NCBI RefSeq assembly: GCF_048403405.1
Contig: NZ_CP183129.1
Reading direction: 5' to 3' (one strand)
From: Escherichia coli
GTDB lineage: Bacteria; Pseudomonadota; Gammaproteobacteria; Enterobacterales; Enterobacteriaceae
Length of the DNA stretch: 64,000 bases
Shown here: piece after piece, positions 13,769 through 52,400 of the stretch
Layout: every line of letters starts with the position of its first letter
Position numbering within the stretch: position 1 is the first letter of the stretch
The notes under the pieces: generated by a model
Told to the model about the DNA's origin: nothing
The model's input: the letters and a program-made list of their open reading frames with translations, nothing else
Database searches by the model: none
Program-made: the position numbers and the translations under genes

Positions 13769-14072
13769 CCCCCTCATCCACGTTTGATAAGAGCGGCGAG
13801 TATTCTTGCTGATGCTACTCATTGCTTCCCCCCTTTACACCTTAATGCCGTTCCCCCCACACAGATCAAATTGTTTATACCTGGCTGAGTAAATAACCTT
13901 ATTGTTAGTATGGGTATACTGGGTGATGATAACCCCGCAATTTCATTATTCATTGTTCTCCCATAGGATGAGGTTTCCCGCCGTAACTGGCGGGCTTTTT
14001 TTGCCGCAGAATTTTTCCTTTTAACACCCTGTAAACGAAAACTGCGCCGAAGCGCAGTTTAATCGTTGATGG

Positions 14073-17000
14073 TCAGAACGACCAGTTCGCACCAGCCACC
14101 GCGTTCCACGGGGATTCCACACCGGCACCATGGCTATACCCCACCCCGAGATGCCCGCTTAACGAACTGCTGAATGAGGCTTTAATACCTGCCTGATATA
14201 TTCCACGTCTGCCCGACAAATCATTGACAAAATTACCGTCATTATTCACTTTCACCCGGTTATCATCGACAAATTCTTTGCGCACAGCCGCCTTCAGCCA
14301 CGGCTCAACTTCCATGCCGTTCCCCAGACGCATGTTGTAACTCAGCGTTGCGCCCAGTTCACGATATATACTGCGGGTATCGACTGATTTCGATTCCATG
14401 CCATTGGATAAATGATATTCGGGGTTATCAGCGGTGAACCCCGTTAACGATGCATACGGCGTCAGGTTCCAGTTACCATCGGTAAATCGCATCCCGGTTT
14501 CAATGTGCCCCCCCAGCCCGTTGCTATGATAACTGCCGTTGGCGGCTCCACCGCTGCTCATTTTACCGGCTACGTTACTTTCAAAGCGGTTCAGCTTCAC
14601 GATACCGTCCAGATAGAAACCACTTTCATGTTCCCAGCTGGCATAGCCCCCCAGAGAATAACTGCCCACACTGCCATGTCCTCCACGATCAAAACCGATA
14701 TGTGAATGGGAATAACCCATAAAAGCGCCCAGCGTCGCAATCCCCTCAGGAATATCATTACGACTGTCGATCCCCACTGTCATTCCGGTCAGCGTCTGCT
14801 CAAACCCGGCACCCGCATCGGTGGTGACATTATTACGGGTGTTATACGTCGTCCCCCAGACATTATTGTTGTGTGGACTCGCTTTCATTATGTTCAACCG
14901 CTCGCGAATACTGTTTAGCTCAGCATCAAAGACCAACGGTAATGTTGCTGCCATATTGAGTACGGCAGCCGTAGAAGGCGTGATGCGTTTCTCCGGAACG
15001 GGTGTCGGCGTTGGCTCGGGAGTCGGGTCTGGATTTGGATTTGGATTTGGATTTGGATTTGGATTTGGGTTCGGATTTGGATTTGGATTTGGATTTGGGT
15101 TCGGATTTGGGTTCGGATTTGGGTTCGGGTTCGGGTTCGGATTTGGATTTGGGTTGACATTATTAGTCAGGTTCCAGTTGCTGTTGCCGTCGCTTTTCAG
15201 GACATACTCATAGGTCCCAAGATCAACGAAACCGCCGGTATTGCCCAGCGTAAACGACGCATCCCCTCCCCCTGTTTTCACCAGCGTCATCGCATCGTCA
15301 GACTGAGGGCTGACGCCGGTATCCTGAACAAAGATTTTAAAATTACCAGTGGCGTTGTTGTTGACGATCAGTTGATCGCCCCGGGAGCCTGCAACGTTGG
15401 TATGCAGGTAGAAATTACCGCTGCCGGAAAGTTCACTGGTGGTCAGCGTATTGTAGATATCGTTAGTTGTGGCAGGCGCTGATAAATAAACATCACCGTC
15501 GTTGAGTAGCAAACTGTTTACTCTATATTCGCAGTTGCTGGTGCCTGCACAGGAATTATTGCTGTTAAGCCAGACACTGCCCCGGCTGGCAGCCGTCAGG
15601 TCGGCAAGCGTCGTATCAACGCCATTGCCGATAGTGAATGTCGCGCTATCGGTAATCCGGATCGCCCCTTCGAGTTTAACTGGCGTAACATTATCCCGTG
15701 GCGTCATTAACGACAGGCTTCCTGTCGCGCCACTGACCGATGCATCCGCCAGCGTACCTGCGTAGACGATTGCCGTCCCACCAGAGACCTGTAGATCTTC
15801 TGCCCGGGCCAGAGCCTGAAACTCATCTTTTGACCGCCCAAGGGTATATTGCCCACCAGAGTTAACCTTTGTGGCGGAGTCCTGACCCAGGTTTTGCATT
15901 GCACCACCCTTGTCAACCGTGGAGTCACGGGCTTCGGTACCTGCTAATACCAATAAATTACCGCCATTTTCCAGCAACATATTGGTCGCTAAATTGCTGG
16001 CAATGGAAAAGGTGCCGTACTGGTGCGTACCGCTGATTTCAATACCGTTAGCCGTGCTCGTCTGGAGAGCGGCACCGCTGTTCTGGACGATATCTGTCGC
16101 TTTGCCATTATCGTTGACTGTCAGCGTTCCGCCTTCATTGATCGTTGTTTTTATTGCCTCTCCGTTAGCTGAAACTGTTTGTATTCCGCCGTCGTTAATT
16201 GTTGTCTCATTTGCCACACCCTCGATGATTTGTTCACCGCCAGTGAGCGTCGTGCCTGTCGCAGTGGCTTTTGTTTTGACGATCTCCCGACCGCCCGCAT
16301 TAACCTGTGTTTTGGCGGAAGTGGTGTCTGACTCCACGGTTAACACGCCGCCATTTGTCAGCAGGATATTGTTCGCCGCACCCTGCTCGATGCTGAACGC
16401 GACGCCATCAGCGCGTGTCCCTGTGACCCGCGTCGCCCTGGTGGTTGCAACCAACGCGCCCTGACTACTCTGCTGTATCCCCGTTGCGCTGCCTTTCTCC
16501 CGCACATCGAGTATGCCGCCATTGTTAAGTCTGGTGGTATATGCTACGGCCTCCTCGTGGACAATCAGCTTACCGCCAGCATCAACGATGGTATCTACCG
16601 CCGAGGTTTGAGCTACGACCGTCAGTTGGCCGGTATTTTCCAGCACAACATGCTCAGCCCTGCCTCCGGTAATAGTGAAGTGAGATGACCTCTGGTATCC
16701 ATCAATATCAGTCCCCGCGCCCGTATTGGCAACTAAAGCGCTCCCCGTGTCCAGGTAAACCCCATGTGCGATACCGCCGGTATCGACAATCAGCGTGCCT
16801 CCGGCGCGAATATTGCTGCCAGTTGCCGTACCTCCTTTCTCAACAACCTGCTTGCTCCCGGAAGAGATATTTGTTGTGTCAGCTTTCCCGCCGCTCTTGA
16901 TATTTTGCGTGCCACTGTTGATATTGGTTCCCGTAGCAATACCATGATTATAAATATTCTGTGTACCGCCATTAATTATGGTATTAGTCGCGTTCCCGGC

Positions 17001-17441
17001 AACATCCATGGCCCCGCCGTTATCTATTCGGGTCGCATCAGCTTTAGCATTCGTTAAAACTGACATTGTTCCTTTATCGTTAATTATCGTCCCTGTAGAA
17101 ATTCCTCCCTCACTAATTGTCTGGCTGCCACCGTTAATGACTGTATTATTAGCCTGCCCCTGATAAGAGCCATGACCAGATACCTCTTGATGTCCACCAG
17201 TATCAATAACACTTCCATTAGAAATCCCGCCATATACCTCCTGATTGCCGTGATTGATGATATGAGCATTATTTGTTGTACCTCGTTCATCTACTCTTTG
17301 GCTGCCGTCTACAGTCTCATCATTTACAACGCCAATAACATTAGAAGTGAAGGCCGTCATCCCAGGCGGGGCATATATCATGGCAGCTATCAATAAGGAA
17401 AGTACTGAGCGGTGAAAATAATAGCGACTGATTCTGTTCAT
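14073..17441 (-). CDS. Type Va autotransporter adhesin (intact; positional equivalent of the K-12 ycgI pseudogene)
   Basis: 1165-aa ORF; N-terminal signal peptide (MNRISRYYFHRSVLSLLIAAMIYA), long Gly/Thr/Asn-rich passenger with repeated GG-x-x-I/V motifs, (NP)n linker, C-terminal beta-barrel ending ...GANWSF; start chosen at internal Met with RBS, ORF extends to 17570. Confidence 0.75.
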   Translation of the reverse strand: MNRISRYYFHRSVLSLLIAAMIYAPPGMTAFTSNVIGVVNDETVDGSQRVDERGTTNNAHIINHGNQEVYGGISNGSVIDTGGHQEVSGHGSYQGQANNTVINGGSQTISEGGISTGTIINDKGTMSVLTNAKADATRIDNGGAMDVAGNATNTIINGGTQNIYNHGIATGTNINSGTQNIKSGGKADTTNISSGSKQVVEKGGTATGSNIRAGGTLIVDTGGIAHGVYLDTGSALVANTGAGTDIDGYQRSSHFTITGGRAEHVVLENTGQLTVVAQTSAVDTIVDAGGKLIVHEEAVAYTTRLNNGGILDVREKGSATGIQQSSQGALVATTRATRVTGTRADGVAFSIEQGAANNILLTNGGVLTVESDTTSAKTQVNAGGREIVKTKATATGTTLTGGEQIIEGVANETTINDGGIQTVSANGEAIKTTINEGGTLTVNDNGKATDIVQNSGAALQTSTANGIEISGTHQYGTFSIASNLATNMLLENGGNLLVLAGTEARDSTVDKGGAMQNLGQDSATKVNSGGQYTLGRSKDEFQALARAEDLQVSGGTAIVYAGTLADASVSGATGSLSLMTPRDNVTPVKLEGAIRITDSATFTIGNGVDTTLADLTAASRGSVWLNSNNSCAGTSNCEYRVNSLLLNDGDVYLSAPATTNDIYNTLTTSELSGSGNFYLHTNVAGSRGDQLIVNNNATGNFKIFVQDTGVSPQSDDAMTLVKTGGGDASFTLGNTGGFVDLGTYEYVLKSDGNSNWNLTNNVNPNPNPNPNPNPNPNPNPNPNPNPNPNPNPNPNPNPNPNPNPDPTPEPTPTPVPEKRITPSTAAVLNMAATLPLVFDAELNSIRERLNIMKASPHNNNVWGTTYNTRNNVTTDAGAGFEQTLTGMTVGIDSRNDIPEGIATLGAFMGYSHSHIGFDRGGHGSVGSYSLGGYASWEHESGFYLDGIVKLNRFESNVAGKMSSGGAANGSYHSNGLGGHIETGMRFTDGNWNLTPYASLTGFTADNPEYHLSNGMESKSVDTRSIYRELGATLSYNMRLGNGMEVEPWLKAAVRKEFVDDNRVKVNNDGNFVNDLSGRRGIYQAGIKASFSSSLSGHLGVGYSHGAGVESPWNAVAGANWSF
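15029..15156. repeat. Hexanucleotide tandem repeat (ggattt/gggttc)n encoding an (Asn-Pro)~21 linker inside the autotransporter
   Basis: Direct reading: about 21 consecutive 6-nt units; translated on minus strand as NPNPNP...NPDPTPEPTPTP. Confidence 0.9.
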
Positions 17442-18785: not shown

Positions 18786-21434
18786 TCAGAACTTATATTT
18801 CAGGCCCACCATCACTGCGGTGTCATTGTAGCCATTATCACCCAGCTGCACGCCCACATTACCCCAGACGCTGGCCGCCGGATTCAGATTGCCATTTACG
18901 CCAAGTTTAATTTCCCCCAGATTACGCGCCCCGTCTTGTTCAACTTTCACACCGTTCATTGAGACAGCAAAATCTTTACTGTTATGGATCCAGTTCATTT
19001 CAACAAAAGGTTCAAAGTCGTCACCGTGCGGACCGCTGTTTTTCTCCTGAGTACGAATAAAGGTACGGAAGCCGAGTCGGGTCTGGATGTTGTTATTTGC
19101 GTCATTCTCAATACGTGAGCCATTGGCTTCCGTGTGCGCATTATGATCGACGCCCATCCAGATAGCCTGTGCCTGTGGCTGGAAGATCCACGTATATTTC
19201 GCCGCTTCCAGACCAAAGGATTTATTCAGGGCAAAACCGTAACCCGCTTCCAGCGAGACGGTTGCACCTTTCGCGCTATAGGATTCATAGGCTAACTCAT
19301 CCCCTTTCACCGAGTTTTTAAACCAGCTATATTGCGCCCAGGCGTCAATGTATGCGCCTTTTTTACTGATGTCATCGGCAAACCAGGTGGCATACAGCCC
19401 TGCGCTATAGCCTCTGACACTCCCTTTCGAACGATAATCCGACACGCTGGAATGAGTTGAGTTGTAGTCGCGGGCATAACCAGCCATCACTCCCAAACGC
19501 CAACTGTCACTGTCGGTAAAACCACCGGTTAACAGATCCGCCCCTAACTGCGAGACGTAGCGATGCGAGGTCGTTCTCAACTGTCCGTTGCTGTCACGCC
19601 AGGCATTATGCCCGCCAATTTGACGTAGCCAAAGTCGGCTTGAACGCTCCTGTTCAGTTACAGGATCGATGTAGCGCGTTTCACCTGCACGATCGTTCAG
19701 ACGCATAACAAAAAGAGTGTTAGCGGCTGCCAGATTGGCGACGTAACTTCCAGCTTCGGGGCGCAGGACGGGGGTAGGCGCAACAGTAGGCGCTGAACTT
19801 CCTCCGGAGTTTGTTTCACCGCCGCTCGTTGCCTGGAAGTTAGTCAGATACCAGTTTTTATTGGTCGCTTCGGTATTACCTCGGGTTAATGAATATTCGT
19901 AGGCACCGGCGAAAATCCTCGAATCCTTAATAAATTCCCCATTTGATTCCCCCTCAACGCTGATAATCTCTATCCCATTTAACGTGTAAGCCCCGCTGCC
20001 CCCAGCATTGGTAACTTTTACTCGGGTTGTTCCGGAGGTATTTCCATTAATAACAACTTTATCAGTAGCTGAATTATCATCACCCAATTCAGTTCTGAGA
20101 TGCAATACGCCATTATTACCAACGTAATTTTCAGTTATTGTTAACCTTGTTGGTTCGAAATCCTTTCCATCTGCCCGGGAAATATAGACCGTACTATTGT
20201 CAACCGTGAGCTTGCTCACCGTTGAGTCAGTTTTAATATCCCAGGTACTATTATCTGAAAGCGACAGATAGGTATGAGTGCTATCATCTGTTGAAAGATT
20301 GGCTGAACCCGTTATTTTTGAATTAGATGCATCGATGGCCAAATGACCTTTAATATTATTAATAAAAACATCTGCAGCCGATGATACCTCACTATCCGTA
20401 ATGGTCACGTTACTCGTCTCATTTTTATTGTAGAGGATTTCATTTGCTGACCGTAGTGAGCTACCAGATAAAATATCTACCGTTGCTTCCTGACCATTTA
20501 TGGAAGACTCCAGCACAATTCCAGCCCCCTGATGCGCGACTGCAGATGTATTTTTCAGCGTCACCTTGCCGCCATTATAAATTTTAGCAATCGCGGCGTC
20601 AGGACCCGTTGTATGAATTTCTCCCTGGTTAAATGAAACAGTCCCCTGGCGAGCAGCGATGGCATGAGCATTGTCCCCATACGTGGTAATATCAACATCG
20701 GTTAATGTAACGCTGGCATTGGTATAATCAAGCTTGCTACCCGCCTTGACGACAGTGCCATTAGCGTAAGCGGCATAACTTTCTGTTCCGAGGGTTGTTA
20801 TCTCCCCTTTTGCCATATCCAGTTTTGCTTTGGCGTTATTTTCATTACTTCCTGTATCGGCAGTACTTTCTTCATCAAGAGAAGATACACACGCACGCGC
20901 GCTTCCGGGAGATGCACAAGCAAGAACGCCGACTGCGTGATTACCCGCAGTAACAATAAAAGTATTACCTTCGTCAGATAAATGGGGGTTAACCGAACCG
21001 TCAGTGTTGACTCTTATTATGGTATCAGTATTCAGGTTTCCATTCGTTTGACTTAGCAAACCAATTGAGTAATCCCCCGTTGTGACAATCGTATTATTAC
21101 CCTGCAAAATAACTGCACCGCCATATTCACTTACGACTGCGCTAGCTGTATATACTGTGCTTAGAGGATTATTGCCAGAAGGATATAAACCACCCGTTGT
21201 TACAATGACGCCTTTGTTAATGGTTAAATTGCTACCCTCTCCTGCAACAGATACCCCGTAACTTCCATTACCCGTTGTTATAACTAGCGCATTATCAATA
21301 TCTTTTACTTCTCCATCTTTTATTGCCACAGCATGTTTATATTCATCGTACTGAATAAACTGTTCAGCATATGCATTACCCACCGCCAGAGCAATAAGTC
21401 CTAAACTAAACCCGGGGAGTTTTTTCAGTTTCAT
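18786..21434 (-). CDS. Type Va autotransporter (intact; positional equivalent of the K-12 ycgH pseudogene)
   Basis: 882-aa ORF; signal peptide MKLKKLPGFSLGLIALAVGNAYA, passenger domain, C-terminal beta-barrel ending ...VGLKYKF. Confidence 0.75.
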   Translation of the reverse strand: MKLKKLPGFSLGLIALAVGNAYAEQFIQYDEYKHAVAIKDGEVKDIDNALVITTGNGSYGVSVAGEGSNLTINKGVIVTTGGLYPSGNNPLSTVYTASAVVSEYGGAVILQGNNTIVTTGDYSIGLLSQTNGNLNTDTIIRVNTDGSVNPHLSDEGNTFIVTAGNHAVGVLACASPGSARACVSSLDEESTADTGSNENNAKAKLDMAKGEITTLGTESYAAYANGTVVKAGSKLDYTNASVTLTDVDITTYGDNAHAIAARQGTVSFNQGEIHTTGPDAAIAKIYNGGKVTLKNTSAVAHQGAGIVLESSINGQEATVDILSGSSLRSANEILYNKNETSNVTITDSEVSSAADVFINNIKGHLAIDASNSKITGSANLSTDDSTHTYLSLSDNSTWDIKTDSTVSKLTVDNSTVYISRADGKDFEPTRLTITENYVGNNGVLHLRTELGDDNSATDKVVINGNTSGTTRVKVTNAGGSGAYTLNGIEIISVEGESNGEFIKDSRIFAGAYEYSLTRGNTEATNKNWYLTNFQATSGGETNSGGSSAPTVAPTPVLRPEAGSYVANLAAANTLFVMRLNDRAGETRYIDPVTEQERSSRLWLRQIGGHNAWRDSNGQLRTTSHRYVSQLGADLLTGGFTDSDSWRLGVMAGYARDYNSTHSSVSDYRSKGSVRGYSAGLYATWFADDISKKGAYIDAWAQYSWFKNSVKGDELAYESYSAKGATVSLEAGYGFALNKSFGLEAAKYTWIFQPQAQAIWMGVDHNAHTEANGSRIENDANNNIQTRLGFRTFIRTQEKNSGPHGDDFEPFVEMNWIHNSKDFAVSMNGVKVEQDGARNLGEIKLGVNGNLNPAASVWGNVGVQLGDNGYNDTAVMVGLKYKF

Positions 21435-25563: not shown

Positions 25564-26775
25564 ATGCTTACCACCCTTATTTATCGTAGCCATATACGTG
25601 ACGACGAACCTGTCAAAAAAATCGAAGAAATGGTTTCGATAGCAAATCGCAGGAACATGCAGTCTGACGTAACAGGGATCTTACTGTTTAATGGTTCTCA
25701 TTTTTTCCAGCTTCTGGAAGGTCCGGAAGAACAGGTTAAAATGATATATCGGGCTATATGCCAGGATCCACGGCACTATAATATTGTTGAGCTGCTGTGC
25801 GATTACGCGCCTGCTCGCCGTTTTGGCAAAGCGGGAATGGAATTATTTGATTTGCGCCTGCACGAGCGAGATGACGTTTTACAGGCCGTATTCGACAAAG
25901 GCACATCAAAATTTCAGCTAACTTATGATGACAGAGCGCTACAATTTTTTCGTACTTTTGTCCTTGCAACCGAACAAGCAACCTATTTCGAGATCCCTGC
26001 CGAAGACTCCTGGCTTTTTATCGCTGACGGATCTGATAAAGAACTTGATTCTTGTACCCTTTCACCAACTATAAATGACCACTTTGCCTTTCATCCTATT
26101 GTCGATCCCTTATCGCGGCGGATAATCGCTTTTGAAGCCATTGTGCAAAAAAATGAAGATAGCCCATCAGCTATAGCGGTTGGGCAGCGTAAAGACGGGG
26201 AAATCTACAAAGCGGATCTCAAAAGTAAGGCGCTTGCATTCGCGATGGCACACGCACTTGAGCTCGGTGATAAAATGATTTCAATCAATCTATTACCTAT
26301 GACCCTGGTTAACGAACCTGACGCAGTCTCTTTTTTACTTGATGAAATAAAGGCCAATGCTCTGGTGCCTGAACAAATCATCGTTGAATTTACTGAAAGT
26401 GAAGTCATATCTCGGTTTGATGAGTTTGCAGAAGCGATTAAATCGCTTAAGGCTGCCGGTATCAGTGTAGCAATTGATCATTTTGGCGCAGGTTTTGCCG
26501 GTTTGTTACTCCTGTCACGCTTCCAGCCTGACAGAATTAAAATCAGTCAGGAATTGATTACCAATGTTCATAAAAGCGGGCCACGGCAGGCAATTATTCA
26601 AGCGATCATAAAATGCTGTACATCACTTGAAATTCAAGTCAGTGCTATGGGCGTGGCAACACCAGAAGAGTGGATGTGGCTTGAATCCGCAGGAATTGAG
26701 ATGTTTCAGGGAGATCTGTTTGCGAAAGCTAAATTGAATGGTATCCCTTCCATAGCGTGGCCAGAGAAAAAATAA
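25564..26775 (+). CDS. bluF: Blue-light sensor BluF (YcgF); BLUF domain plus degenerate EAL domain
   Basis: From MLTTLIYRSHIRDDEPVKKIEEMVSIANRRNMQSDVTGILLFNG (BLUF) with C-terminal EAL-like domain; ORF in track extends upstream to 25486. Confidence 0.85.
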   Translation: MLTTLIYRSHIRDDEPVKKIEEMVSIANRRNMQSDVTGILLFNGSHFFQLLEGPEEQVKMIYRAICQDPRHYNIVELLCDYAPARRFGKAGMELFDLRLHERDDVLQAVFDKGTSKFQLTYDDRALQFFRTFVLATEQATYFEIPAEDSWLFIADGSDKELDSCTLSPTINDHFAFHPIVDPLSRRIIAFEAIVQKNEDSPSAIAVGQRKDGEIYKADLKSKALAFAMAHALELGDKMISINLLPMTLVNEPDAVSFLLDEIKANALVPEQIIVEFTESEVISRFDEFAEAIKSLKAAGISVAIDHFGAGFAGLLLLSRFQPDRIKISQELITNVHKSGPRQAIIQAIIKCCTSLEIQVSAMGVATPEEWMWLESAGIEMFQGDLFAKAKLNGIPSIAWPEKK

Positions 26776-26979
26776 TTTTCAGCACATTCTTTCACATGAT
26801 TTCAGTAAATCATCGTGAAAATGAATACGTTATGTTTAAATTTAATCCACATTAAAAATAATGTTTCATCCAATTTAGCTGAAATCTTATTTATACTTTG
26901 TACAATTTTAGCGTATATTGTACAAAGTATTATTGGGTCGTGTACAGGCGACGGAGATTTGTGACCGCAAGGAGGAATT

Positions 26980-27711
26980 GTGGCTTATTACAGCATTGGT
27001 GATGTTGCTGAACGTTGCGGGATTAATCCTGTCACTCTCCGGGCCTGGCAACGCCGCTACGGTTTGTTAAAACCACAGCGCAGTGAAGGCGGACACCGAC
27101 TCTTTGATGAAGAAGACATACAACGCATCGAAGAGATCAAGCGTTGGATAAGTAATGGCGTCCCTGTAGGCAAAGTTAAAGCATTACTGGAAACCACCAG
27201 CCAGGATACGGAAGATGACTGGAGCCGCCTGCAAGAAGAGATGATGTCAATTCTTCGTATGGCTAATCCTGCCAAACTACGCGCGAGAATTATTTCACTG
27301 GGTCGAGAGTACCCAGTAGATCAATTGATTAATCATGTTTACCTTCCTGTTCGCCAGCGTCTCGTGCTTGATCACAACACCTCCCGCATTATGAGCAGTA
27401 TGTTTGACGGCGCATTAATTGAATACGCAGCAGCCTCGCTTTTCGAAATGCGCCGTAAGCCCGGTAAAGAAGCCATTCTGATGGCGTGGAATGTTGAAGA
27501 GAGAGCACGATTGTGGCTGGAAGCATGGCGTTTATCATTGTCAGGATGGCACATTTCTGTTCTTGCTGATCCCATTGAATCGCCGCGCCCGGAACTGTTC
27601 CCGACGCAAACATTGATTGTCTGGACAGGCATGGCACCAACGAGAAGGCAAAACGAACTTTTACAACACTGGGGTGAGCAAGGTTATAAAGTCATCTTTC
27701 ATGCCCCCTAA
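26980..27711 (+). CDS. bluR: MerR-family repressor BluR (YcgE)
   Basis: 243-aa [59 protein letters not shown] (MerR HTH). Confidence 0.85.
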
Positions 27712-27931
27712 TTTCACCTTTATCCCGCCCCTTAGACAGAATCTTATAATCTGAACCCACAACAGCGTTTGCACCGGAGCTGGTCCGTTGCAAAATGCTC
27801 ACCGGGAGAATTCAGGTAATCCCCCTTTCACACTTTGTACATATCACAGCCAAAGGACAGACCAGATTGAAGTGGTAAAACCGATCGTGCACACTACGCA
27901 GTCTCACAACTAACAAGAGGTTATTATCCTG

Positions 27932-28336
27932 ATGGATCAGGTTGTTGTTTTTCAAAAGATGTTTGAGCAAGTGAGAAAAGAGCAAAACTTCTCCTGGTTT
28001 TATTCAGAATTAAAACATCACCGTATTGCACATTACATTTATTATCTGGCTACGGATAACATCAGAATTATTACTCACGATGACACGGTTTTGTTATTAA
28101 GAGGAACCAGGAACCTGTTAAAAGTTAGTACGACCAAGAACCCTGCTAAAATAAAAGAGGCCGCATTGCTTCATATTTGCGGAAAATCAACATTTCGGGA
28201 ATACTGTTCAACACTGGCAGGCGCGGGCGTTTTCCGGTGGGTTACTGATGTTAATCATAACAAACGCAGTTACTACGCCATTGATAATACGCTTTTATAT
28301 ATTGAAGATGTAGAAAACAATAAACCATTAATCTAG
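27932..28336 (+). CDS. ycgX: YcgX (DUF1398-family)
   Basis: 134-aa ORF recognised as YcgX; neighbour of bluR and iraM. Confidence 0.7.
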   Translation: MDQVVVFQKMFEQVRKEQNFSWFYSELKHHRIAHYIYYLATDNIRIITHDDTVLLLRGTRNLLKVSTTKNPAKIKEAALLHICGKSTFREYCSTLAGAGVFRWVTDVNHNKRSYYAIDNTLLYIEDVENNKPLI

Positions 28337-29038
28337 CTAAAGTTGGAAGCTTAAGAAATGCTTCATAATTCAGTAAGGCATTAGCATAATGGAAATAAAA
28401 GTGCAGAGACTATCCCTATGGATGATATATACTATCTTTTTATTGCCACCCATAAATAATCACCAGGCCAATACTATCAAATTGATATTTGAAATGTGAT
28501 TACTTGACTTTCTATAAGTTATTTTATAACGGTTAACAAATTTATAAAACCAACGGGCGTGCCATACGCCCGTTTCAATACTTAACGCACATGTGTTTTG
28601 GTTTAGTCATCATCCGGTTATATGTATTTTAGCCAGGAATGGGTTAAACCATTCCTATATAACTAAAAAATTGAAACCTTATTCTCATGTCATGCTTATA
28701 TTCGTCATTATCGTTATATAAAAAGGCCAACCATAATGTTTAGCAAATTGGCACAAAGTAGTATAAAGGCTATGTTTTAATTACAGGATGTTCAGTCATT
28801 TGAATGTATAACATTTTAGCTAAACAAATCTAAAACGAAGTGAATAATTTAATGTTTTCACTAAATCTCATTTTGTTTAATATCTATTGAGATTTCTTGC
28901 TTTAAATTTTGCTTTATATAAACAATGGTTTTAATTTTTGATTAATTTGTTTTTTGGGGAGTAATATACACATATGCAAAGTCAAGAAATGAACATCCAA
29001 ATGAACTATATTAAGCACCGTGGGATAAGACATAACAA

Positions 29039-29362
29039 ATGAAGTGGATAGTAATTGACACGATAATTCAACCTACATGCGGCATATCTTTTTCAGCCAT
29101 ATGGGGTGATATGAAAATGATCATCTGGTATCAATCTACTATATTTCTCCCTCCTGGCAGTATATTTAAACCGGTTAAATCTGGTATTATCTTTAAGGAT
29201 AAAGAATACCCTATTACTATTTATAATATCGCACCATTCAACAAGGATTTATGGATTTTACTCAAAAGCAGTCAAGAGTGTCCTCCAGGAGAAAGCGAAA
29301 TAACAAATAAATGTTTACATAATAGTTGTATTATAAAAATATGCCCATATGGACTCAAGTAA
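29039..29362 (+). CDS. iraM: Anti-adaptor protein IraM (RssB inhibitor; PhoPQ-regulated in K-12)
   Basis: 107-aa [46 protein letters not shown]...; strongly AT-rich gene and upstream region. Confidence 0.8.
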
Positions 29363-29464
29363 TGGGCTTCATATAAATATGCTCGACATGCTATTAATAA
29401 TATCCACATAAATAAAACAACGGGCGTGTTATACGCCCGTTTCATTATTTAACACATGTAGAGA

Positions 29465-30715
29465 TTACATGTTCTTGATGATCGCATCACCAAACTCGCT
29501 ACATTTCAGCAATTTAGCGCCTTCCATCAGACGTTCGAAGTCATAGGTTACGGTCTTGGCGTTGATTGCGCCTTCCATACCTTTAACAATCAGGTCTGCG
29601 GCTTCAGTCCAGCCCATATGGCGCAGCATCATCTCAGCGGAGAGAATAATAGAGCCAGGGTTAACTTTGTCCTGACCGGCATATTTCGGCGCAGTACCGT
29701 GGGTGGCTTCAAACAGGGCGCATTCGTCACCGATGTTTGCGCCTGGGGCGATACCGATACCGCCGACCTGTGCAGCCAGAGCGTCAGAAATGTAGTCACC
29801 GTTCAGGTTCATACAGGCGATAACATCATATTCAGCCGGACGCAGCAGGATCTGTTGCAGGAATGCATCAGCAATCACATCTTTAATGACGATCTCTTTG
29901 CCGGTATTCGGGTTTTTAACTTTCAGCCACGGGCCGCCGTCGATCAGTTCACCGCCAAACTCTTCACGCGCCAGCTGGTAGCCCCAGTCTTTAAACGCGC
30001 CTTCGGTGAACTTCATGATGTTGCCTTTGTGCACCAGGGTCACAGAGTCACGATCGTTAGCAATTGCGTATTCGATCGCGGCACGGACCAGACGTTTGGT
30101 GCCTTCTTCAGAACACGGCTTAATACCGATACCGCAATGTTCCGGGAAGCGAATTTTCTTCACGCCCATCTCTTCACGCAGGAATTTAATCACTTTCTCG
30201 GCGTCGGCAGAGTCAGCTTTCCATTCGATACCCGCATAAATGTCTTCCGAGTTTTCACGGAAGATAACCATATCGGTCAGTTCAGGATGTTTAACCGGGC
30301 TTGGGGTGCCCTGATAGTAACGTACCGGACGCAGGCAGATGTAGAGATCCAGTTCCTGGCGCAGGGCAACGTTCAGAGAACGAATACCGCCACCAACCGG
30401 AGTGGTCAGAGGGCCTTTAATGGCAACGCGATATTCACGAATCAGATCAAGGGTTTCAGCAGGCAGCCAGACATCCTGACCATAAACCTGTGTGGATTTT
30501 TCACCGGTGTAAATTTCCATCCAGGAGATTTTACGCTCGCCTTTATAGGCTTTCTCGACTGCAGCGTCGACCACTTTCAGCATGGCTGGGGTTACATCTA
30601 CACCGATTCCATCACCTTCAATGTAAGGGATAATCGGATTTTCAGGAACGTTGAGTTTGCCGTTTTGCAGGGTGATCTTCTTGCCTTGTGCCGGAACAAC
30701 TACTTTACTTTCCAT
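29465..30715 (-). CDS. icd: NADP-dependent isocitrate dehydrogenase
   Basis: 416-aa [49 protein letters not shown]...; full-length. Confidence 0.95.
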
Positions 30716-30886
30716 TCACCTCTCCTTCGAGCGCTACTGGTTTGCTCGTCTGCCACCACGTTGCATATGCGTTTGCGTCCTGCGATACGGATGCATTAGA
30801 GCAATTTTTTGTTAATGATTTGTAATTGGCTTGTCAATACTACCCTATTGTTTGCCGTCATGAAAGATGCGCGTTATTAGGCTATA

Positions 30887-30937
30887 ATGCGGCAATTCAT
30901 AATCTCTGAAAATACCATGCAAAAAACTTCTTTTAGA
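30887..30937 (+). pseudogene. Displaced 5' remnant of rluE (first ~17 codons) separated from the gene body by ~1.5 kb of inserted DNA
   Basis: Reads ATG CGG CAA TTC ATA ATC TCT GAA AAT ACC ATG CAA AAA ACT TCT TTT AGA = MRQFIISENTMQKTSFR, matching my recollection of the K-12 RluE N-terminus; frame then diverges into nonsense and stops at 31030; an 11-bp motif cttcttttaga recurs at 32439-32449 inside the functional rluE. Confidence 0.45.
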
Positions 30938-31176
30938 CCAAAGACAGTATTTTTCAGACCTTCAAATAAGGCATTAAATATCAATAAGTTACACCAGTTT
31001 TTAAGCAATAAAAAAAACCACCAGAGATAACTAACAGGATGCTATTTGGTCAAAATTTGACATTACTCGACTCAGCGACTATCTCACTTTGAGCACTATT
31101 GGGAAAATTATCAAAAGTCATGGTTGAAGCGACAAGCAACGAGTAAATTATGGCATCCCCCCTTTTTGAGGTTCAC

Positions 31177-31263
31177 ATGAAACGCTTTGCACTGATAGCT
31201 GTGAAACTCGTTGCCTTTACTGGTTCTGCATCTGCTGCAACCGAAGAAATCAACTTCAAGTAA
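31177..31263 (+). CDS. Micro-ORF (28 aa, MKRFALIAVKLVAFTGSASAATEEINFK) preceding the two-gene module
   Basis: ATG 6 nt downstream of gagg; signal-peptide-like hydrophobic core; below 60-aa track cut-off, read directly from sequence. Confidence 0.3.
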   Translation: MKRFALIAVKLVAFTGSASAATEEINFK

Positions 31264-31296
31264 CAGAAACACTATATAACAATGGAGTGTTGACAA

Positions 31297-31746
31297 ATGG
31301 ATACTACCGAAGAACGCAATGGAACATATTTCTACAGAGGACACCCGAACCTGTCCAAAATAGAACTACTCAACGTCATATTCCTTGAAGAATTCTGTAA
31401 GGAATTGGGGATTGATTCGGTATCAGGTGCAGCAATCTTATCTGGTCAACCGTGGCTGGGTACAAGAGCGAAGCCGCAAGGGGCAACCCTGGGAACAAGT
31501 GTTGTCTCAAAGTATGCGCGTATACTGATGAGAGATGCACGCATGCCTTTTGGTATTTCTGTTCATACACCAGTGGGTGTAAGGATGCAGAAATCTAATA
31601 AGCTTGCTGCAATTATCGCTCGTTGGGTCCCGTGGATTGGTTGGGCTTCACTGTCGATGAGTCTTTACAGGGTTTCGACTCGTACCCAGGAAAAATACAA
31701 TCTGATTGCCAAACCTCAAGACCGTATTAAGTGGACTTCCTTCTAA
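31297..31746 (+). CDS. Hypothetical protein (149 aa) with C-terminal hydrophobic segment; first gene of islet module
   Basis: ORF in track; RBS ggag 9 nt upstream; C-terminal predicted helix LAAIIARWVPWIGWASLSMSLY; no family recognised. Confidence 0.55.
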   Translation: MDTTEERNGTYFYRGHPNLSKIELLNVIFLEEFCKELGIDSVSGAAILSGQPWLGTRAKPQGATLGTSVVSKYARILMRDARMPFGISVHTPVGVRMQKSNKLAAIIARWVPWIGWASLSMSLYRVSTRTQEKYNLIAKPQDRIKWTSF

Positions 31747-32081
31747 TGGCGACAACAATCACAGACGAAGTTTTAGCACTGTTCCGTGATGAGATTCCAG
31801 GTTATCAGGATGACCACGGGAAGGAAATTCCGTTAGAACTGGACTCTGATTTGTTCGACTATCCACGAGATGATTTAGAGGACGCTATACGGAAATACAA
31901 AGAGAGGTTTGGGATTAACCTGGATAATCTGGACTGGTCTTTGTACCTTCCATGGGAGTCTGCACCATTGCTTCAACGATGGTTCAAGCTCAAGCGGGAA
32001 GAGGTAGAAACAACACGTTTACCGTTAACTGTACGGATGTTTGCAGAATCAGCAGAAGCGGGAAAATGGCTGTATCAGTAG
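31746..32081 (+). CDS. Hypothetical acidic protein (111 aa); second gene of islet module, translationally coupled
   Basis: Start ATG overlaps stop of upstream gene (TAATG); Asp/Glu-rich N-terminal half (DEIPGYQDDHGKEIPLELDSDLFDYPRDDLEDAI); track ORF begins 5 codons earlier at 31731. Confidence 0.55.
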   Translation: MATTITDEVLALFRDEIPGYQDDHGKEIPLELDSDLFDYPRDDLEDAIRKYKERFGINLDNLDWSLYLPWESAPLLQRWFKLKREEVETTRLPLTVRMFAESAEAGKWLYQ

Positions 32082-32401
32082 AATAAAAAAGAAGGCTGCG
32101 ATGCCCCTCTTATTACTGCTGATGATGGTAGTGGTAAAGCATCATCCTGAACTTGAACAGTGAAGTGCTGTCACCCATCAGTAATACAGAAACACTATTT
32201 TTCATACCAGTATTTATTCAATTCATCAATGTAAAATGTGTTCATTGGGCCATATTTATCACCATGCAGCCACACAACCGCTGCTCACTAACCCAGGTAT
32301 TGATGAAACCGCGCTGAAGAGCCTGAACCCTGAACCTCTAACGAGTACCTTAAAAGTCCAATGCAATCCGACACTGTGCTACCCTCTGCGTATAGCTCTA
32401 T

Positions 32402-33052
32402 TTGGAATTTACCATGAAATACTTTAGCGATTCTAAATCTTCTTTTAGAAAAAAACAGGTTAGTCGACTAAACTCGCAACACTCCACTAAGCGTAAACCT
32501 GAAAACCAGCCCACGCGCGTGATCCTGTTCAATAAACCCTACGATGTTCTTCCGCAGTTCACCGATGAAGCCGGACGCAAAACATTAAAAGAATTCATCC
32601 CGGTTCAGGGCGTTTATGCAGCAGGTCGTCTTGACCGCGATAGCGAAGGGTTACTGGTGCTGACCAATAACGGCGCGTTGCAGGCGCGTTTAACCCAGCC
32701 GGGTAAACGCACCGGAAAAATCTATTATGTGCAGGTGGAAGGTATTCCCACACAAGACGCACTTGAAGCCTTGCGCAATGGCGTAACCTTAAATGATGGC
32801 TCTACCCTGCCCGCAGGCGTAGAGCTGGTTGACGAACCCGCGTGGTTATGGCCGCGGAATCCACCAATTCGTGAACGCAAAAGTATTCCCACCAGCTGGC
32901 TGAAGATCACCTTATATGAAGGACGTAATCGCCAGGTGCGCCGCATGACCGCCCATGTTGGTTTCCCCACGCTGCGACTGATTCGCTATGCGATGGGTGA
33001 TTACTCTTTGGATAATCTTGCCAACGGCGAATGGCGAGAAGCGACAGATTAA
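32402..33052 (+). CDS. rluE: 23S rRNA pseudouridine synthase RluE with non-K-12 N-terminus
   Basis: 216-aa ORF; ...[61 protein letters not shown] (RsuA/RluE fold); first ~30 residues differ from the K-12-like remnant at 30887. Confidence 0.85.
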
Positions 33053-35360: not shown

Positions 35361-36734
<1,374 letters not shown>

Positions 36735-36825
36735 GCCTCAAAACAGTGCCGGATGGCGATGCTGTCCGGCCTGCTTATTAAGATTATCCACTTTTTATTT
36801 TTTCACTTTACCTCCCCTCCCCGCT

Positions 36826-36842
36826 GGTTTATTTAATGTTTA
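36826..36842 (+). promoter_or_regulatory. PhoP box (direct repeat GGTTTA-N5-TGTTTA) in phoPQ promoter
   Basis: ggtttatttaatgtttac about 65-80 bp upstream of phoP start. Confidence 0.7.
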
Positions 36843-36903
36843 CCCCCATAACCACATAATCGCGTTACACTATTTTAATAATTAAGACAGGGAGAAATAA
36901 AAA

Positions 36904-37575
36904 ATGCGCGTACTGGTTGTTGAAGACAATGCGTTGTTACGTCACCATCTTAAAGTTCAGATTCAGGATGCTGGTCATCAGGTCGATGACGCAGAAGATG
37001 CCAAAGAAGCCGATTATTATCTCAATGAACATTTACCGGATATTGCGATTGTCGATCTCGGTTTGCCTGACGAGGACGGTCTGTCACTGATTCGCCGCTG
37101 GCGTAGCAATGATGTTTCACTGCCGATTCTGGTATTAACCGCCCGTGAAAGCTGGCAGGACAAAGTCGAAGTATTAAGTGCTGGCGCTGATGATTACGTG
37201 ACTAAACCATTTCATATTGAAGAGGTGATGGCGCGAATGCAGGCATTAATGCGGCGTAATAGCGGTCTGGCTTCACAGGTCATTTCGCTACCACCGTTTC
37301 AGGTTGATCTCTCTCGCCGTGAATTATCTATTAATGACGAAGTGATCAAACTGACCGCGTTCGAATACACCATTATGGAAACGTTGATACGCAATAATGG
37401 CAAAGTGGTGAGCAAAGATTCGTTAATGCTCCAACTCTATCCGGATGCGGAGCTGCGGGAAAGCCATACCATTGATGTACTGATGGGACGTCTGCGCAAA
37501 AAAATTCAGGCACAATATCCGCAAGAAGTGATTACCACCGTTCGCGGCCAGGGCTATCTGTTCGAATTGCGCTGA
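36904..37575 (+). CDS. phoP: Response regulator PhoP
   Basis: 223-aa [62 protein letters not shown]. Confidence 0.95.
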
Positions 37576-39035
37576 TGAAAAAATTACTGCGTCTTTTTTT
37601 CCCGCTCTCGCTGCGGGTACGTTTTCTGTTGGCAACGGCAGCGGTAGTACTGGTGCTTTCGCTTGCCTACGGAATGGTCGCGCTGATCGGTTATAGCGTC
37701 AGTTTCGATAAAACTACGTTTCGGCTGTTACGTGGCGAGAGCAATCTGTTCTATACCCTTGCGAAGTGGGAAAACAATAAGTTGCATGTCGAGTTACCCG
37801 AAAATATCGACAAGCAAAGCCCCACTATGACGCTAATTTATGATGAGAACGGGCAGCTTTTATGGGCGCAACGTGACGTGCCCTGGCTGATGAAGATGAT
37901 CCAGCCTGACTGGCTGAAATCGAATGGTTTTCATGAAATTGAAGCGGATGTTAACGATACCAGCCTCTTGCTGAGTGGAGATCATTCGATACAGCAACAG
38001 TTGCAGGAAGTGCGGGAAGATGATGACGACGCGGAGATGACCCACTCGGTGGCGGTAAACGTCTACCCGGCAACATCGCGGATGCCAAAGTTGACCATTG
38101 TGGTGGTGGATACCATTCCGGTGGAGCTAAAAAGTTCCTATATGGTCTGGAGCTGGTTTATCTATGTGCTCTCAGCCAATCTGCTGTTAGTGATCCCGCT
38201 GCTGTGGGTCGCCGCCTGGTGGAGTTTACGCCCCATCGAAGCCCTGGCAAAAGAAGTCCGCGAACTGGAAGAACATAACCGCGAATTGCTCAATCCAGCC
38301 ACAACGCGAGAACTGACCAGTCTGGTACGAAACCTGAACCGATTGTTAAAAAGTGAACGCGAACGTTACGACAAATATCGTACGACGCTCACCGACCTGA
38401 CCCATAGTCTGAAAACGCCACTGGCGGTGCTGCAAAGTACGCTGCGTTCTCTGCGTAGTGAGAAGATGAGCGTCAGTGATGCTGAACCGGTAATGCTGGA
38501 GCAAATCAGCCGCATTTCACAGCAAATTGGCTACTACCTGCATCGTGCCAGTATGCGCGGCGGGACATTGCTCAGCCGCGAGCTGCATCCGGTCGCCCCA
38601 CTGCTGGACAATCTCACCTCGGCGCTGAACAAAGTGTATCAACGCAAAGGGGTCAATATCTCTCTCGATATTTCGCCAGAGATCAGCTTTGTCGGTGAGC
38701 AGAACGATTTTGTCGAGGTGATGGGCAACGTGCTGGATAATGCCTGTAAATATTGCCTCGAGTTTGTCGAAATATCTGCAAGGCAAACAGACGAGCATCT
38801 CTATATTGTGGTCGAGGATGATGGCCCCGGTATTCCATTAAGCAAGCGAGAGGTCATTTTCGACCGTGGTCAACGGGTTGATACTTTACGCCCTGGGCAA
38901 GGTGTAGGGCTGGCGGTAGCCCGCGAAATCACCGAGCAATATGAGGGTAAAATCGTCGCCGGAGAGAGCATGCTGGGCGGTGCGCGGATGGAGGTGATTT
39001 TTGGTCGCCAGCATTCTGCGCCGAAAGATGAATAA
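37575..39035 (+). CDS. phoQ: Sensor histidine kinase PhoQ
   Basis: 486-aa ORF, two TM segments, H-box ([12 protein letters not shown]), ATPase domain; overlaps phoP stop. Confidence 0.95.
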
Positions 39036-48779: not shown

Positions 48780-49379
48780 TCAGAAACGGTATCCGATACC
48801 AACAATAAATGCATCCGTTCGCCAGTCGCCACTACCGGAACCTTCATAAGCAAGGTCAATGGTTACGGATTCGGTCGGGTTAAACTGCACGCCAGCCCCC
48901 CACGCCAGAGACGTGTTGCTGTGGCGACCGTCATCACTTCCGGTCAGCACATCGTGCGTTTTCCCCTTGTTGTCAGTTACGCGGAGATAATCCCCGGAGA
49001 AAGTCGACACACGGCTGTAAGCCACACCCACCATCGCATACGCGCTGAACCATTCATTCACGCGTACAGACGGCCCCGCCATCACGCTGAACCAGCGGTT
49101 ACGCACGGAATCTTCATGCCAGCGGGTATCGCTGTAGTGCGTTTTTTGCTCATCCTCAGCATTGGCATAACTGAAGGACGTAATCAGCCCCAGCGCGTCC
49201 GTAAACTCATAACGGTATTTCACGTTAATCCCGTTCAGATTATCGCTGCCGGGAGCGTTCGTACGGGCATGAAGATACCCCGCGCTCAGTGTGGACTGAT
49301 GTTCAGACGCCCATGCAGGCGCACCGGATACGGACAGACAGATGGCTGCGGACAAAATGGCTGCACAAACTTTACGCAT
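48780..49379 (-). CDS. lom: Lom-family outer-membrane beta-barrel protein
   Basis: 199-aa ORF with signal peptide MRKVCAAILSAAICLSVSGAPAWA and C-terminal ...IGYRF; Ail/Lom family. Confidence 0.85.
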   Translation of the reverse strand: MRKVCAAILSAAICLSVSGAPAWASEHQSTLSAGYLHARTNAPGSDNLNGINVKYRYEFTDALGLITSFSYANAEDEQKTHYSDTRWHEDSVRNRWFSVMAGPSVRVNEWFSAYAMVGVAYSRVSTFSGDYLRVTDNKGKTHDVLTGSDDGRHSNTSLAWGAGVQFNPTESVTIDLAYEGSGSGDWRTDAFIVGIGYRF

Positions 49380-49446
49380 AATTACCTCTCGCTTTTCTGC
49401 AATAAAAAAGGCGCCATTTCTGGCGCCCGTATATGGGTTATAAAAT

Positions 49447-52400
49447 TCAGCTGATACTGATGCCTGCGGTGGCTTTCTTCATCACCACAACCAGCAAATC
49501 GCTGATACTTGCTGTGGGATACCAGTTATTCACCAGCCATGCTGACACCGAAAACTCCAGCGTCATGTGGCCGCGACCAGCTGGCATATCAATAACACCA
49601 CTGTAAATCAGCGTATTATCCAGCGCGGTACGGTTATAAATTTCAGCACCGTTTTTCCGTACTATCAGGCGGCATGACGAATAAGTATCGCTGTTCTCCC
49701 GCTCATGTCTGGCACCGCTGAAAGCCACCGCCGGAATAACAATCTGCCGGTTAAACGGCTGATCGTCATAAACCCTGACGGTAATGGTTCCTGATGGCCA
49801 ACGCTCCGGTGCACGGGAGTCACGGGGGAAAGCCTTACCCACTGTTTTAACGAGATCGCCTTCAATCTGGTTTGCAGACAGTTTCCCTCTGATGACACAG
49901 TTCTCGTTAATGGTGACATTATTGAGCGTGCCGGTATTCGCCGTGATGGCTCCACTGATATCCGCATTGCGGGCTGTCAGCCTGCCATCCGGCGTCAGGG
50001 AAAACGTAGGAGGATTGCCGGATGACGTGATGCTCACCGCAAACAGTCGCTTCAGGAACACGTCGTTCATGAACAGCTGATTCCCCTGCGCCACAAACAG
50101 CGGCGTGGTGTTGCCATTCTCCGGGGTAATCATCGCGATACGGTCCGCCTGCAGCAGAATACTGCTCAGCGTCTGACCATCAACATCCTCAATCCCCGCA
50201 CCAATCCCGGCCACATAGGGAATACCGTTTTTTGTTTTCTGCACCTTCAGCATATACATGGCATTCAGCTCATTGCGCGTGTCTGACTGAACCCGCTGGA
50301 TTTGCTGTATGGTCACGGCCTGGTCACCCAGCTTTTTATCCGTGGTCGAGGTAATTTCACTCCCTTTTTTATCCACGTACTGGCGGACCTGTGCTATCTG
50401 TCGGGCGTTTTCTGACTGCCCCTGGCTGACAGTCTGTGAGATTTCACTGCTCACCCGGTCCACTTTCTGGCTCACCTGCGCGATGGCCAGTGTCTGGTCC
50501 TCATTCTTTTTCGCAACCAGCTGCGTGAGGCTGTTTTCCGCCTTCCCGATTTTCCGGGTCACTTCTGCGATATCCGTGTCCATCCGCTGACGGATGTCTT
50601 CTTCCAGTTGCGTGACCTCCGTACGCAGCGCTGAAGCATCAATGCGCTCTTTCAGTGCCTGGCCCAGAAGCGTCTCATCTATCAGCCCCCGGAAAATTTC
50701 CAGATACCCTTCACCATCATTGCTGGGCTGCCCGCTGGCTTCCACAAAAGCAGATTTTCCCACCAGGTTGACGCTTCGCACGTAAAACCAGAAATCCGTC
50801 CCCGGCTTAATCCGGCTCCCCTGGACAGTCCACTGACTGCCGGTCCCCAGATAACGGGCAGATTTTTCCACCTGTGCCGTGTTCGTGATGCGTTTTTCTG
50901 AGAACCAGAATTCAAACTGTACCGTCGGGTCATACACCGCAAGACGCGGGACCGCCGTTATCTGAAAATACCCCGGCGTCAGCTCAATGGTGGCGGGTTT
51001 TGCAGGCGCGTTAATCCGGAAGGTGGTGGTCGCAGGTTCGCCCTGCTGGCCGTAGCTGTTAATGGCCCGCACCGTCAGGGTGTATTCCCCCAGTGGCAGG
51101 CCGCTGAAACGGTGCTCCGTGTCTGCGGTGATGGCGGTGGTCACCAGTCTGGCATCCGTTCCCTTACCACTGGTCAGGCGCAGACTGAAGCGCACACCCT
51201 TCACCACCCGCGGCGTGTCCCATTTCGCCTGCGCCAGATACTGGCCGTCAGCTGCGCTCACCTCCACCGTCAGGTGCTGCACTGCCGGTGGGATGACGCT
51301 GTTCAGGGAACCTGACTGCGGCTCAAAGCGGGCACCGTTATCCACGATGGCTTCTTTTTCCGGTACGTGCTGCACCGCCGTGATGGCAAAGGTGCCGTCC
51401 GTGTTTTCCCGGACGGAGACACAGCGGAACAGGCGACGGCGCAGTGACGGCAGGGAGAGTCCCCACACCCCGTATGTCTCCACACCATCAGGCAGGGTAC
51501 TGACCTGTATCCGGTCCGGCGCGGGGTGTTCGGTGATGTCCACACTCACTGGCTTACCGCTGCCGTTAATCAGGTTCACCGTGGCGGCACCGGTCTCCGG
51601 AAGTGTCACTTCACGGTCCAGCGTCAGGGTGCGGGTGGCAGCATCAATGGACAGGACACGTCCGCCGGTCAGGGTCCCGGCATAGTCGTTATCACAGATT
51701 TCAATGATGTCACCGGGTGTGTGCCGCAGCCCCTGAGACCCGAGCGTGAAATCCACCGTCTGCGTTTCCAGCAGTTCGGTCTTTATCACCCACAGTCCGG
51801 CACGGTGGGCCTGACCGCGGCTGGTACAGCCGAACGCGTCCATCTTCAGCAGGTTGCGTCCGTAGCGCAGTATGGCTTCCGGGTCTTCCACCAGTTCCGT
51901 GGAGGTCTGCCAGCCGTTCTGCGGGTCGGTGTAATTCACCTCCACCGCCGTGTGCCGGTCCTTCAGGGCACTGAAGCTGTAGCGGAATCCCACGCCGTTA
52001 TCATCCACCACCACATCGCTGTTGGTGTACGGCCACACCACATCCGACGGGCGGTCCTGAACGAACGTCAGCGTCTGACCGTTCCATACCGGCATACAGC
52101 GCATCGCAGAGCAGAAATCACTGAGAACGTCCCACGCCTTACGCTGTTGTGCCAGGTACGCATTAAAGGTCATCCGCGGCTCGGTCCCCCCGAAACCATC
52201 CGGGACCGTCTGGTCGCAGTACTGCCCGATGGCATACAGCGCCCACTTGTCCACATCCGCCGCCCCCAGACGTTTTCCCATGCCGTAGCGCGGGTGAGTC
52301 AGCATGTCCCACAGGCACCAGGCCGGGTTGTTGCTGTATGCCGGTTTCAGACTGCCGTCCCAGATACCACTGTACGTGCGTTTTTCCGGGTCATAGTTTG

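Follow-up and report, generated by a model that had tools for sequence, protein, structure and literature searches.

Is the direct repeat that stands in front of phoP in this Escherichia coli DNA the site through which PhoP acts on its own operon, and does the closeness of iraM, a PhoP-induced target, carry any meaning? The window, by which we mean the whole stretch of 64,000 bases that was analyzed, is colinear over its entire length with E. coli MS 69-1 (NZ_CP146675.1, 3003780-3067779), from which it differs at 19 of 64,000 bases, and the RefSeq annotation of MS 69-1 can therefore be transferred to it. The gene order is ycgX (27932-28336), the tiny open reading frame ymgK (28736-28780), iraM, icd (29465-30715, - strand), a two-gene islet, rluE, nudJ, mnmA, hflD, purB (35364-36734), phoP and phoQ, with roxA, pepT, potA, potB and a lambdoid prophage reaching to the window end on the 3′ side of phoQ. 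The response regulator PhoP (223 aa; WP_001265481.1) is encoded at 36904-37575 (+ strand) and the sensor kinase PhoQ (486 aa) at 37575-39035 (+ strand); the two genes overlap by one base and belong to the same operon.

The PhoP box of the phoPQ promoter

A sequence-only reading of this DNA had placed a PhoP box of the form GGTTTA-N5-TGTTTA before phoP, and its letters and coordinates are borne out. Positions 36826-36842 (+ strand) read GGTTTA-TTTAA-TGTTTA, with the half-sites GGTTTA at 36826-36831 and TGTTTA at 36837-36842 separated by the spacer TTTAA. The box sits in the 169-bp spacer between purB and phoP, 61 nt upstream of the phoP ATG (36904). On both strands of the 64-kb window it is the sole match to GGTTTA-N5-TGTTTA, a pattern for which 0.01 chance matches per window are expected (1 of 100 dinucleotide-preserving shuffles had any match). 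The repeat also fits the consensus (T/G)GTTTA-N5-(T/G)GTTTA with 0 mismatches and, when up to one mismatch is allowed, is still the only site that the window yields (1.02 expected by chance).

Scoring the motif with a position-weight matrix was the check that the same reading had proposed. The matrices were built from 44 published sites, with phoP excluded; the training set consists of DNase-footprinted Salmonella boxes (PMC3335776, Table 1) and eight Shigella boxes (PMC5775216, Table 5). With the full 19-nt matrix the phoP box scores 15.8, relative to a training median of 14.6, and ranks second in the window. When scoring is restricted to the 12 hexamer positions, both matrices, with scores of 16.9 and 18.4, put it at the top of ~128,000 positions. 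The full-length matrix of canonical sites gives 15.3, slightly below its lowest training site (15.9) because the spacer differs; the hexamer-only score of 18.4 lies above the training median. Among shuffles of the 169-bp purB-phoP spacer, only 0-0.3% reach the score of the phoP box.

The surroundings of the box have the anatomy of an activator-dependent promoter. The last base of purB is 36734. Between purB and the phoPQ promoter region stands a terminator-like hairpin (36748-36770, + strand; a 10-bp stem with 7 G-C pairs, then a T-rich tail); the box starts 55 nt after this hairpin. The box is in direct orientation and is followed, after a gap of 12 nt (36843-36854), by the predicted -10 hexamer CATAAT (36855-36860, + strand). 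The transcription start of the PhoP-dependent promoter is predicted at ~36866-36868, giving a leader of ~37 nt, and a Shine-Dalgarno-like GGGAGAAA is found at 36890-36897 upstream of the phoP ATG. The A-run between this element and the ATG (36898-36903, AAAAAATG) has one A more than in four other alleles (AAAAATG). In 36600-37000, a generic sigma-70 promoter scan detects no -35/-10 consensus pair, and no -35 hexamer is recognizable, as is expected because the activator site fills the -35 position of an activator-dependent promoter. The generic sigma-70 scan also gives no consensus candidate for the constitutive P2 promoter in the purB-phoP spacer. The box presumably belongs to the "P1" promoter, an assignment that follows secondary citations of Kato et al. 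1999.

Together with its predicted -10 hexamer, the box forms the class II PhoP-activated promoter of phoPQ that has been published as "architecture I". Architecture I denotes a single direct PhoP box 12 nt 5′ of the -10 (Zwir et al. 2012, PMC3335776), and the architecture I/class II promoters are those of phoP, mgtA, yrbL, slyB, and pmrD (PMC3335776). The Salmonella phoP promoter is like that in the window, with a single direct box, 12 nt to the -10 and class II activation (PMC3335776). The DNase-footprinted Salmonella enterica phoP box, TGGTTTATTAACTGTTTAT (PMC3335776, Table 1), has the same hexamers, GGTTTA and TGTTTA, whereas its spacer (TTAAC versus TTTAA in the window) and its 3′ flank differ, and the leader is 34 nt in Salmonella phoP compared with the ~37 nt predicted here. 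The agreement with Shigella flexneri 2a 301 is complete: its phoP box (PMC5775216, Table 5) is the same 19-mer, tGGTTTAtttaaTGTTTAc, and only the host lineage differs. Shigella phoPQ belongs to the 11 operons for which EMSA and lacZ reporter assays gave confirmation, and its autoregulation has been demonstrated (Lin et al. 2018, PMC5775216). That the motif is the canonical PhoP box of phoPQ, as had been read from the letters, is thus upheld by identity to an EMSA-positive site. The E. coli K-12 phoPQ promoter shares with the window the purB-phoP spacer, the operon and the consensus (T/G)GTTTA-N5-(T/G)GTTTA. Nothing substantial differs between the window and the K-12-type promoter, and the allele differences from other strains are all outside the box. 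As far as the accounts in PMC8355897, PMC5775216 and PMC3750022 convey the work of Kato et al. 1999, the K-12 phoPQ operon has a Mg2+-responsive promoter with a PhoP box; one PhoP-P-activated and one constitutive promoter drive phoPQ (PMC3750022).

Conservation within the species is close to complete. The 701 bases around the box have a match, annotated purB/phoP, in 5425 of 5426 complete E. coli genomes. A 56-mer covering 36815-36870 is present in 5424 of the 5426, with at least 98% identity in all except one; the records comprise 2644 identical, 2781 with one difference, and one outlier. When five divergent E. coli alleles are aligned, the 17-bp box and the -10 hexamer are invariant, and the differences are confined to an upstream C-rich tract, a single position in the 12-nt spacer and the A-run that precedes the ATG. 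The outlier, E. coli P276M (NZ_CP044293.1), carries a 9-bp deletion equivalent to window positions 36842-36851, which shortens the distance from box to -10 from 12 to 3 nt. This deletion should disable the autoregulated phoPQ promoter; alternatively, it could be an assembly error.

With its 12 specified bases the motif is short, it is also A/T-rich, and relaxed forms of it turn up about once per 64 kb by chance (the degenerate pattern with one mismatch has an expectation of 1.02), yet an origin as a chance A/T-rich repeat in an intergenic spacer, with no regulatory role, is effectively refuted and exceedingly improbable: the exact pattern is expected 0.01 times, it stands at the one predicted place in the window in the correct orientation and with 12-nt spacing to the -10, an orthologous site of the same sequence is EMSA-positive, and the motif is invariant while adjacent bases vary. 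The observed sequence, uniqueness, geometry and conservation of the element, its identity to bound orthologous sites, and PhoP binding, activation and feedback as drawn from the literature together argue that 36826-36842 is almost certainly where phosphorylated PhoP binds in the inducible phoPQ promoter. Nothing in the data speaks against this reading. On sensing low Mg2+, acid pH, antimicrobial peptides or an osmotic upshift, PhoQ would phosphorylate PhoP, and a PhoP-P dimer would then bind both direct-repeat hexamers. Because the box replaces the -35 element and lies 12 nt 5′ of the -10, PhoP-P is expected to recruit RNA polymerase as a class II activator. Both phoP and phoQ would be transcribed more strongly as a consequence, creating a positive feedback loop that is added to the separate constitutive promoter.

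The box is hence the cis-element of PhoQ/PhoP positive autoregulation, a textbook two-component feedback loop that bears on Mg2+ homeostasis, antimicrobial-peptide resistance and acid resistance. Calling it was correct, and the site is a long-known, ordinary regulatory element; its confirmation adds no new knowledge and serves as a positive control that reading from sequence picks out real regulatory sites.

Candidate PhoP boxes upstream of iraM

The window had also been said to contain iraM as a PhoP-activated gene, for which no clear box could be found by eye. The gene is present at 29039-29362 (+ strand; RefSeq annotation of MS 69-1) and encodes an RssB anti-adaptor of 107 aa, and the literature reports it as a PhoQ/PhoP-induced target (PMC5740661, PMC5775216). 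Its induction is ~20-fold and PhoQ-dependent (PMC5740661), and in Shigella delta-phoPQ the gene, there named ycgW, is expressed at 0.09x, i.e., 11-fold down (PMC5775216). phoP and iraM are the two genes in the window with reported PhoP activation. With regard to the strict consensus, the by-eye result holds: the window scan with up to one mismatch has no site upstream of iraM, and the Shigella study, using a strict pattern, likewise lists no box for ycgW/iraM (PMC5775216). Since the strict search was blank at iraM, the matrices derived from published sites were used instead, and here the by-eye result gives way. The matrix scan that had been proposed for this region returns three above-chance candidates, at 28873-28891 (+), 28820-28838 (-), and 28644-28662 (-).

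The promoter-proximal candidate is a direct box, TGTTTA-ATATC-TATTGA, at 28874-28890 (+ strand; 19-nt hit 28873-28891), with a matrix score of 15.2-15.9, which ranks 2-3 in the window and exceeds the median of the published training sites. A predicted -10 hexamer, TAAATT (28903-28908, + strand), lies 12 nt 3′ of it, and the iraM transcription start is predicted at ~28915. The second candidate, TCGTTTTAGATTTGTTTAG at 28820-28838 (- strand), is in reverse orientation, 36 nt 5′ of the direct box; its score is 15.2 with the all-sites matrix, and the canonical-site matrix gives it 17.9, the highest value in the window. The third and weaker hit, TTATATAGGAATGGTTTAA at 28644-28662 (- strand), lies 377 nt ahead of iraM and 74 nt ahead of ymgK. 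It scores 16.2 with the full matrix but only 12.2 for the hexamers alone, and among strains it varies, with scores of 4.8-12.2; it is probably nonfunctional. Three of the top five matrix hits in the window are thus upstream of iraM. With the hexamer-only matrices, phoP (rank 1) and iraM (rank 2-3) are the only high-ranking hits that are correctly oriented upstream of a gene start.

Direct control by PhoP probably extends to iraM as well, where the weaker proximal box at 28874-28890 and the upstream reverse box at 28820-28838 would mediate it. The specific proposal that iraM is a direct target with a two-box promoter (reverse 28820-28838, direct 28874-28890, -10 at 28903-28908) stands, in our judgment, about an even chance of being right. 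The 702-bp spacer between ycgX and iraM (30% G+C) holds three matrix sites scoring at least 14.8, a number reached by 0 of 300 dinucleotide-preserving shuffles of this spacer (mean, 0.14 such sites). This count speaks against the view that PhoP controls iraM only indirectly and that the matrix hits are by-products of A/T-rich, horizontally acquired DNA, a view that we consider quite possible, if somewhat doubtful. In its favor, a region of 30% G+C favors A/T-rich motifs, no strict-consensus site is present, and the strict-pattern search in Shigella was blank for ycgW/iraM despite the 11-fold fall (PMC5775216). The second half-site of the direct box moreover deviates, being TATTGA in the window and CATTGA in K-12 (K-12 allele, TGTTTA-ACATC-CATTGA). 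However, TATTGA- and CATTGA-like half-sites are present in Salmonella boxes that have been footprinted, e.g., those of pipD, pgtE, and orgB (PMC3335776), and the best-placed hit combines one perfect half-site with a distance of exactly 12 nt to a -10-like hexamer, the spacing by which functional proximal boxes are defined.

The position of the second box, 36 nt upstream, also argues against purely indirect control, as it recalls the ybjX/virK-type promoters. In architecture II, represented by ybjX, virK, mig-14, and yobG/mgrB, the proximal box is essential, while the upstream box, often reverse, boosts transcription or counteracts H-NS silencing (PMC3335776). The candidate iraM promoter and Salmonella architecture II have in common a direct box 12 nt from a -10 or -10-like hexamer, an additional upstream box, and a location in A/T-rich accessory DNA; the distance of the upstream box is 36 nt here compared with 30 nt for ybjX and 26 nt for virK. 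Unlike the architecture II promoters, the candidate promoter is a prediction, and its second half-site is degenerate.

Among eight strains (92-100% identity), the iraM reverse box and the -10 hexamer are invariant, and in the direct box two spacer positions and the first base of half-site 2 (T/C) vary. In one of the eight, half-site 1 is TGTTTG and the score drops to 10-11, which, like the overall conservation of the boxes, is in keeping with indirect control: 11 of 89 columns of the iraM module are variable relative to 77 of 543 in its surroundings, i.e., the module is no better conserved than background. Phylogenetic footprinting is uninformative for the iraM promoter, given eight strains of such high identity and a module that varies as much as the DNA around it, and conservation neither supports nor refutes the boxes.

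If PhoP does act directly on iraM, the boxes would tie it directly to RpoS stabilization. The proximal half-site is TATTGA in the window and CATTGA in K-12, B1 and O111-type alleles, and PhoP-dependent RpoS stabilization might therefore differ among lineages. The iraM boxes may already have been described in Bougdour et al. 2008; all that the present analysis adds is to give candidate PhoP boxes in the iraM promoter concrete positions that can be tested.

The distance between phoPQ and iraM

The sequence-only reading had further remarked that regulator and target sit in one neighborhood. The distance of 7.5 kb in the window is as described; the proximity has no demonstrable meaning, with iraM being accessory and e14 lying between the two genes in K-12. 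Of 5426 complete E. coli genomes, 3937 (73%) have iraM, compared with 5425 for the phoP region. K-12 is colinear with the window only over 26002-29629, after which a displaced icd 3′ fragment is followed by e14 genes (mcrA, pinE). The e14 prophage is inserted at icd in K-12 and therefore separates phoPQ from iraM there. Moreover, as colinearity extends to ~29629 and e14 genes appear only beyond it, iraM is outside e14; this alignment contradicts PMC4045071, which places iraM on the prophage. In the window e14 is absent at 29363-29629, and iraM abuts an intact icd.

It could be argued that the closeness of phoPQ and iraM was selected as regulator-target clustering, e.g., for co-transfer or for a high local concentration of the regulator, given that two top-ranked, correctly placed PhoP-box-like sites in 64 kb serve genes 7.5 kb apart. 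This is very improbable. iraM and its A/T-rich surroundings (30% G+C) are accessory, as the genome counts above indicate, e14 lies between both genes in K-12 at icd without known loss of regulation, and six unrelated housekeeping genes (icd, rluE, nudJ, mnmA, hflD, and purB) intervene in the window. The PhoP targets mgtA, mgrB, rstA, slyB, yrbL, and pagP are scattered around the chromosome, which also counts against clustering. The proximity of phoP and iraM hence looks coincidental.

Accessory DNA in the window

A PhoP-matrix scan had also been proposed for the islet at 30940-32400. In this case the outcome was negative: across 30716-32413, which takes in the islet with its flanks, no position scores above 10.2, relative to a mean shuffle maximum of 10.7, and there is no site. 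The islet occupies 30938-32434 and is inserted in the 5′ end of rluE, as seen from ATCC 8739, whose alignment to the window covers 29816-30937 and picks up again at 32435. Two genes lie on the islet, one of the STM2901 family (31297-31746) and a DUF1493 gene (31746-32081), and the full islet is present in 374 of 5426 complete E. coli genomes. Its insertion alters the RluE N-terminus, and a remnant of the old rluE 5′ end remains at ~30887-30937.

Directly after potB, the lambdoid prophage (~43900-64000) encodes a tail fiber, Lom, J, tape measure and capsid proteins, among others. As many as 16 of the 19 mismatches to MS 69-1 are clustered at 49295-49582, at the lom/gpJ junction. The "potB genomic island" of CFT073, which carries iraL (PMC4045071), has the same insertion site as this prophage; a tblastn search with IraM finds neither a second IraM copy nor iraL in the part of the potB prophage inside the window.

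One more PhoP-box-like site, TCGTTTACAGGGTGTTAAA at 14020-14038 (- strand), scores 13.9-15.7 and lies in the convergent minE/ypjA spacer with no gene start nearby. About 0.5-0.8 hits of such strength are expected per window by chance, and the site is therefore probably noise. Farther along, on the 5′ side of the bluF-iraM region, small ymg genes are interspersed with two large genes for autotransporter adhesins (14073-17441 and 18786-21434), of the YpjA/EhaD-like and ECIAI39_1904 families, and the whole has the look of a mosaic of accessory DNA.
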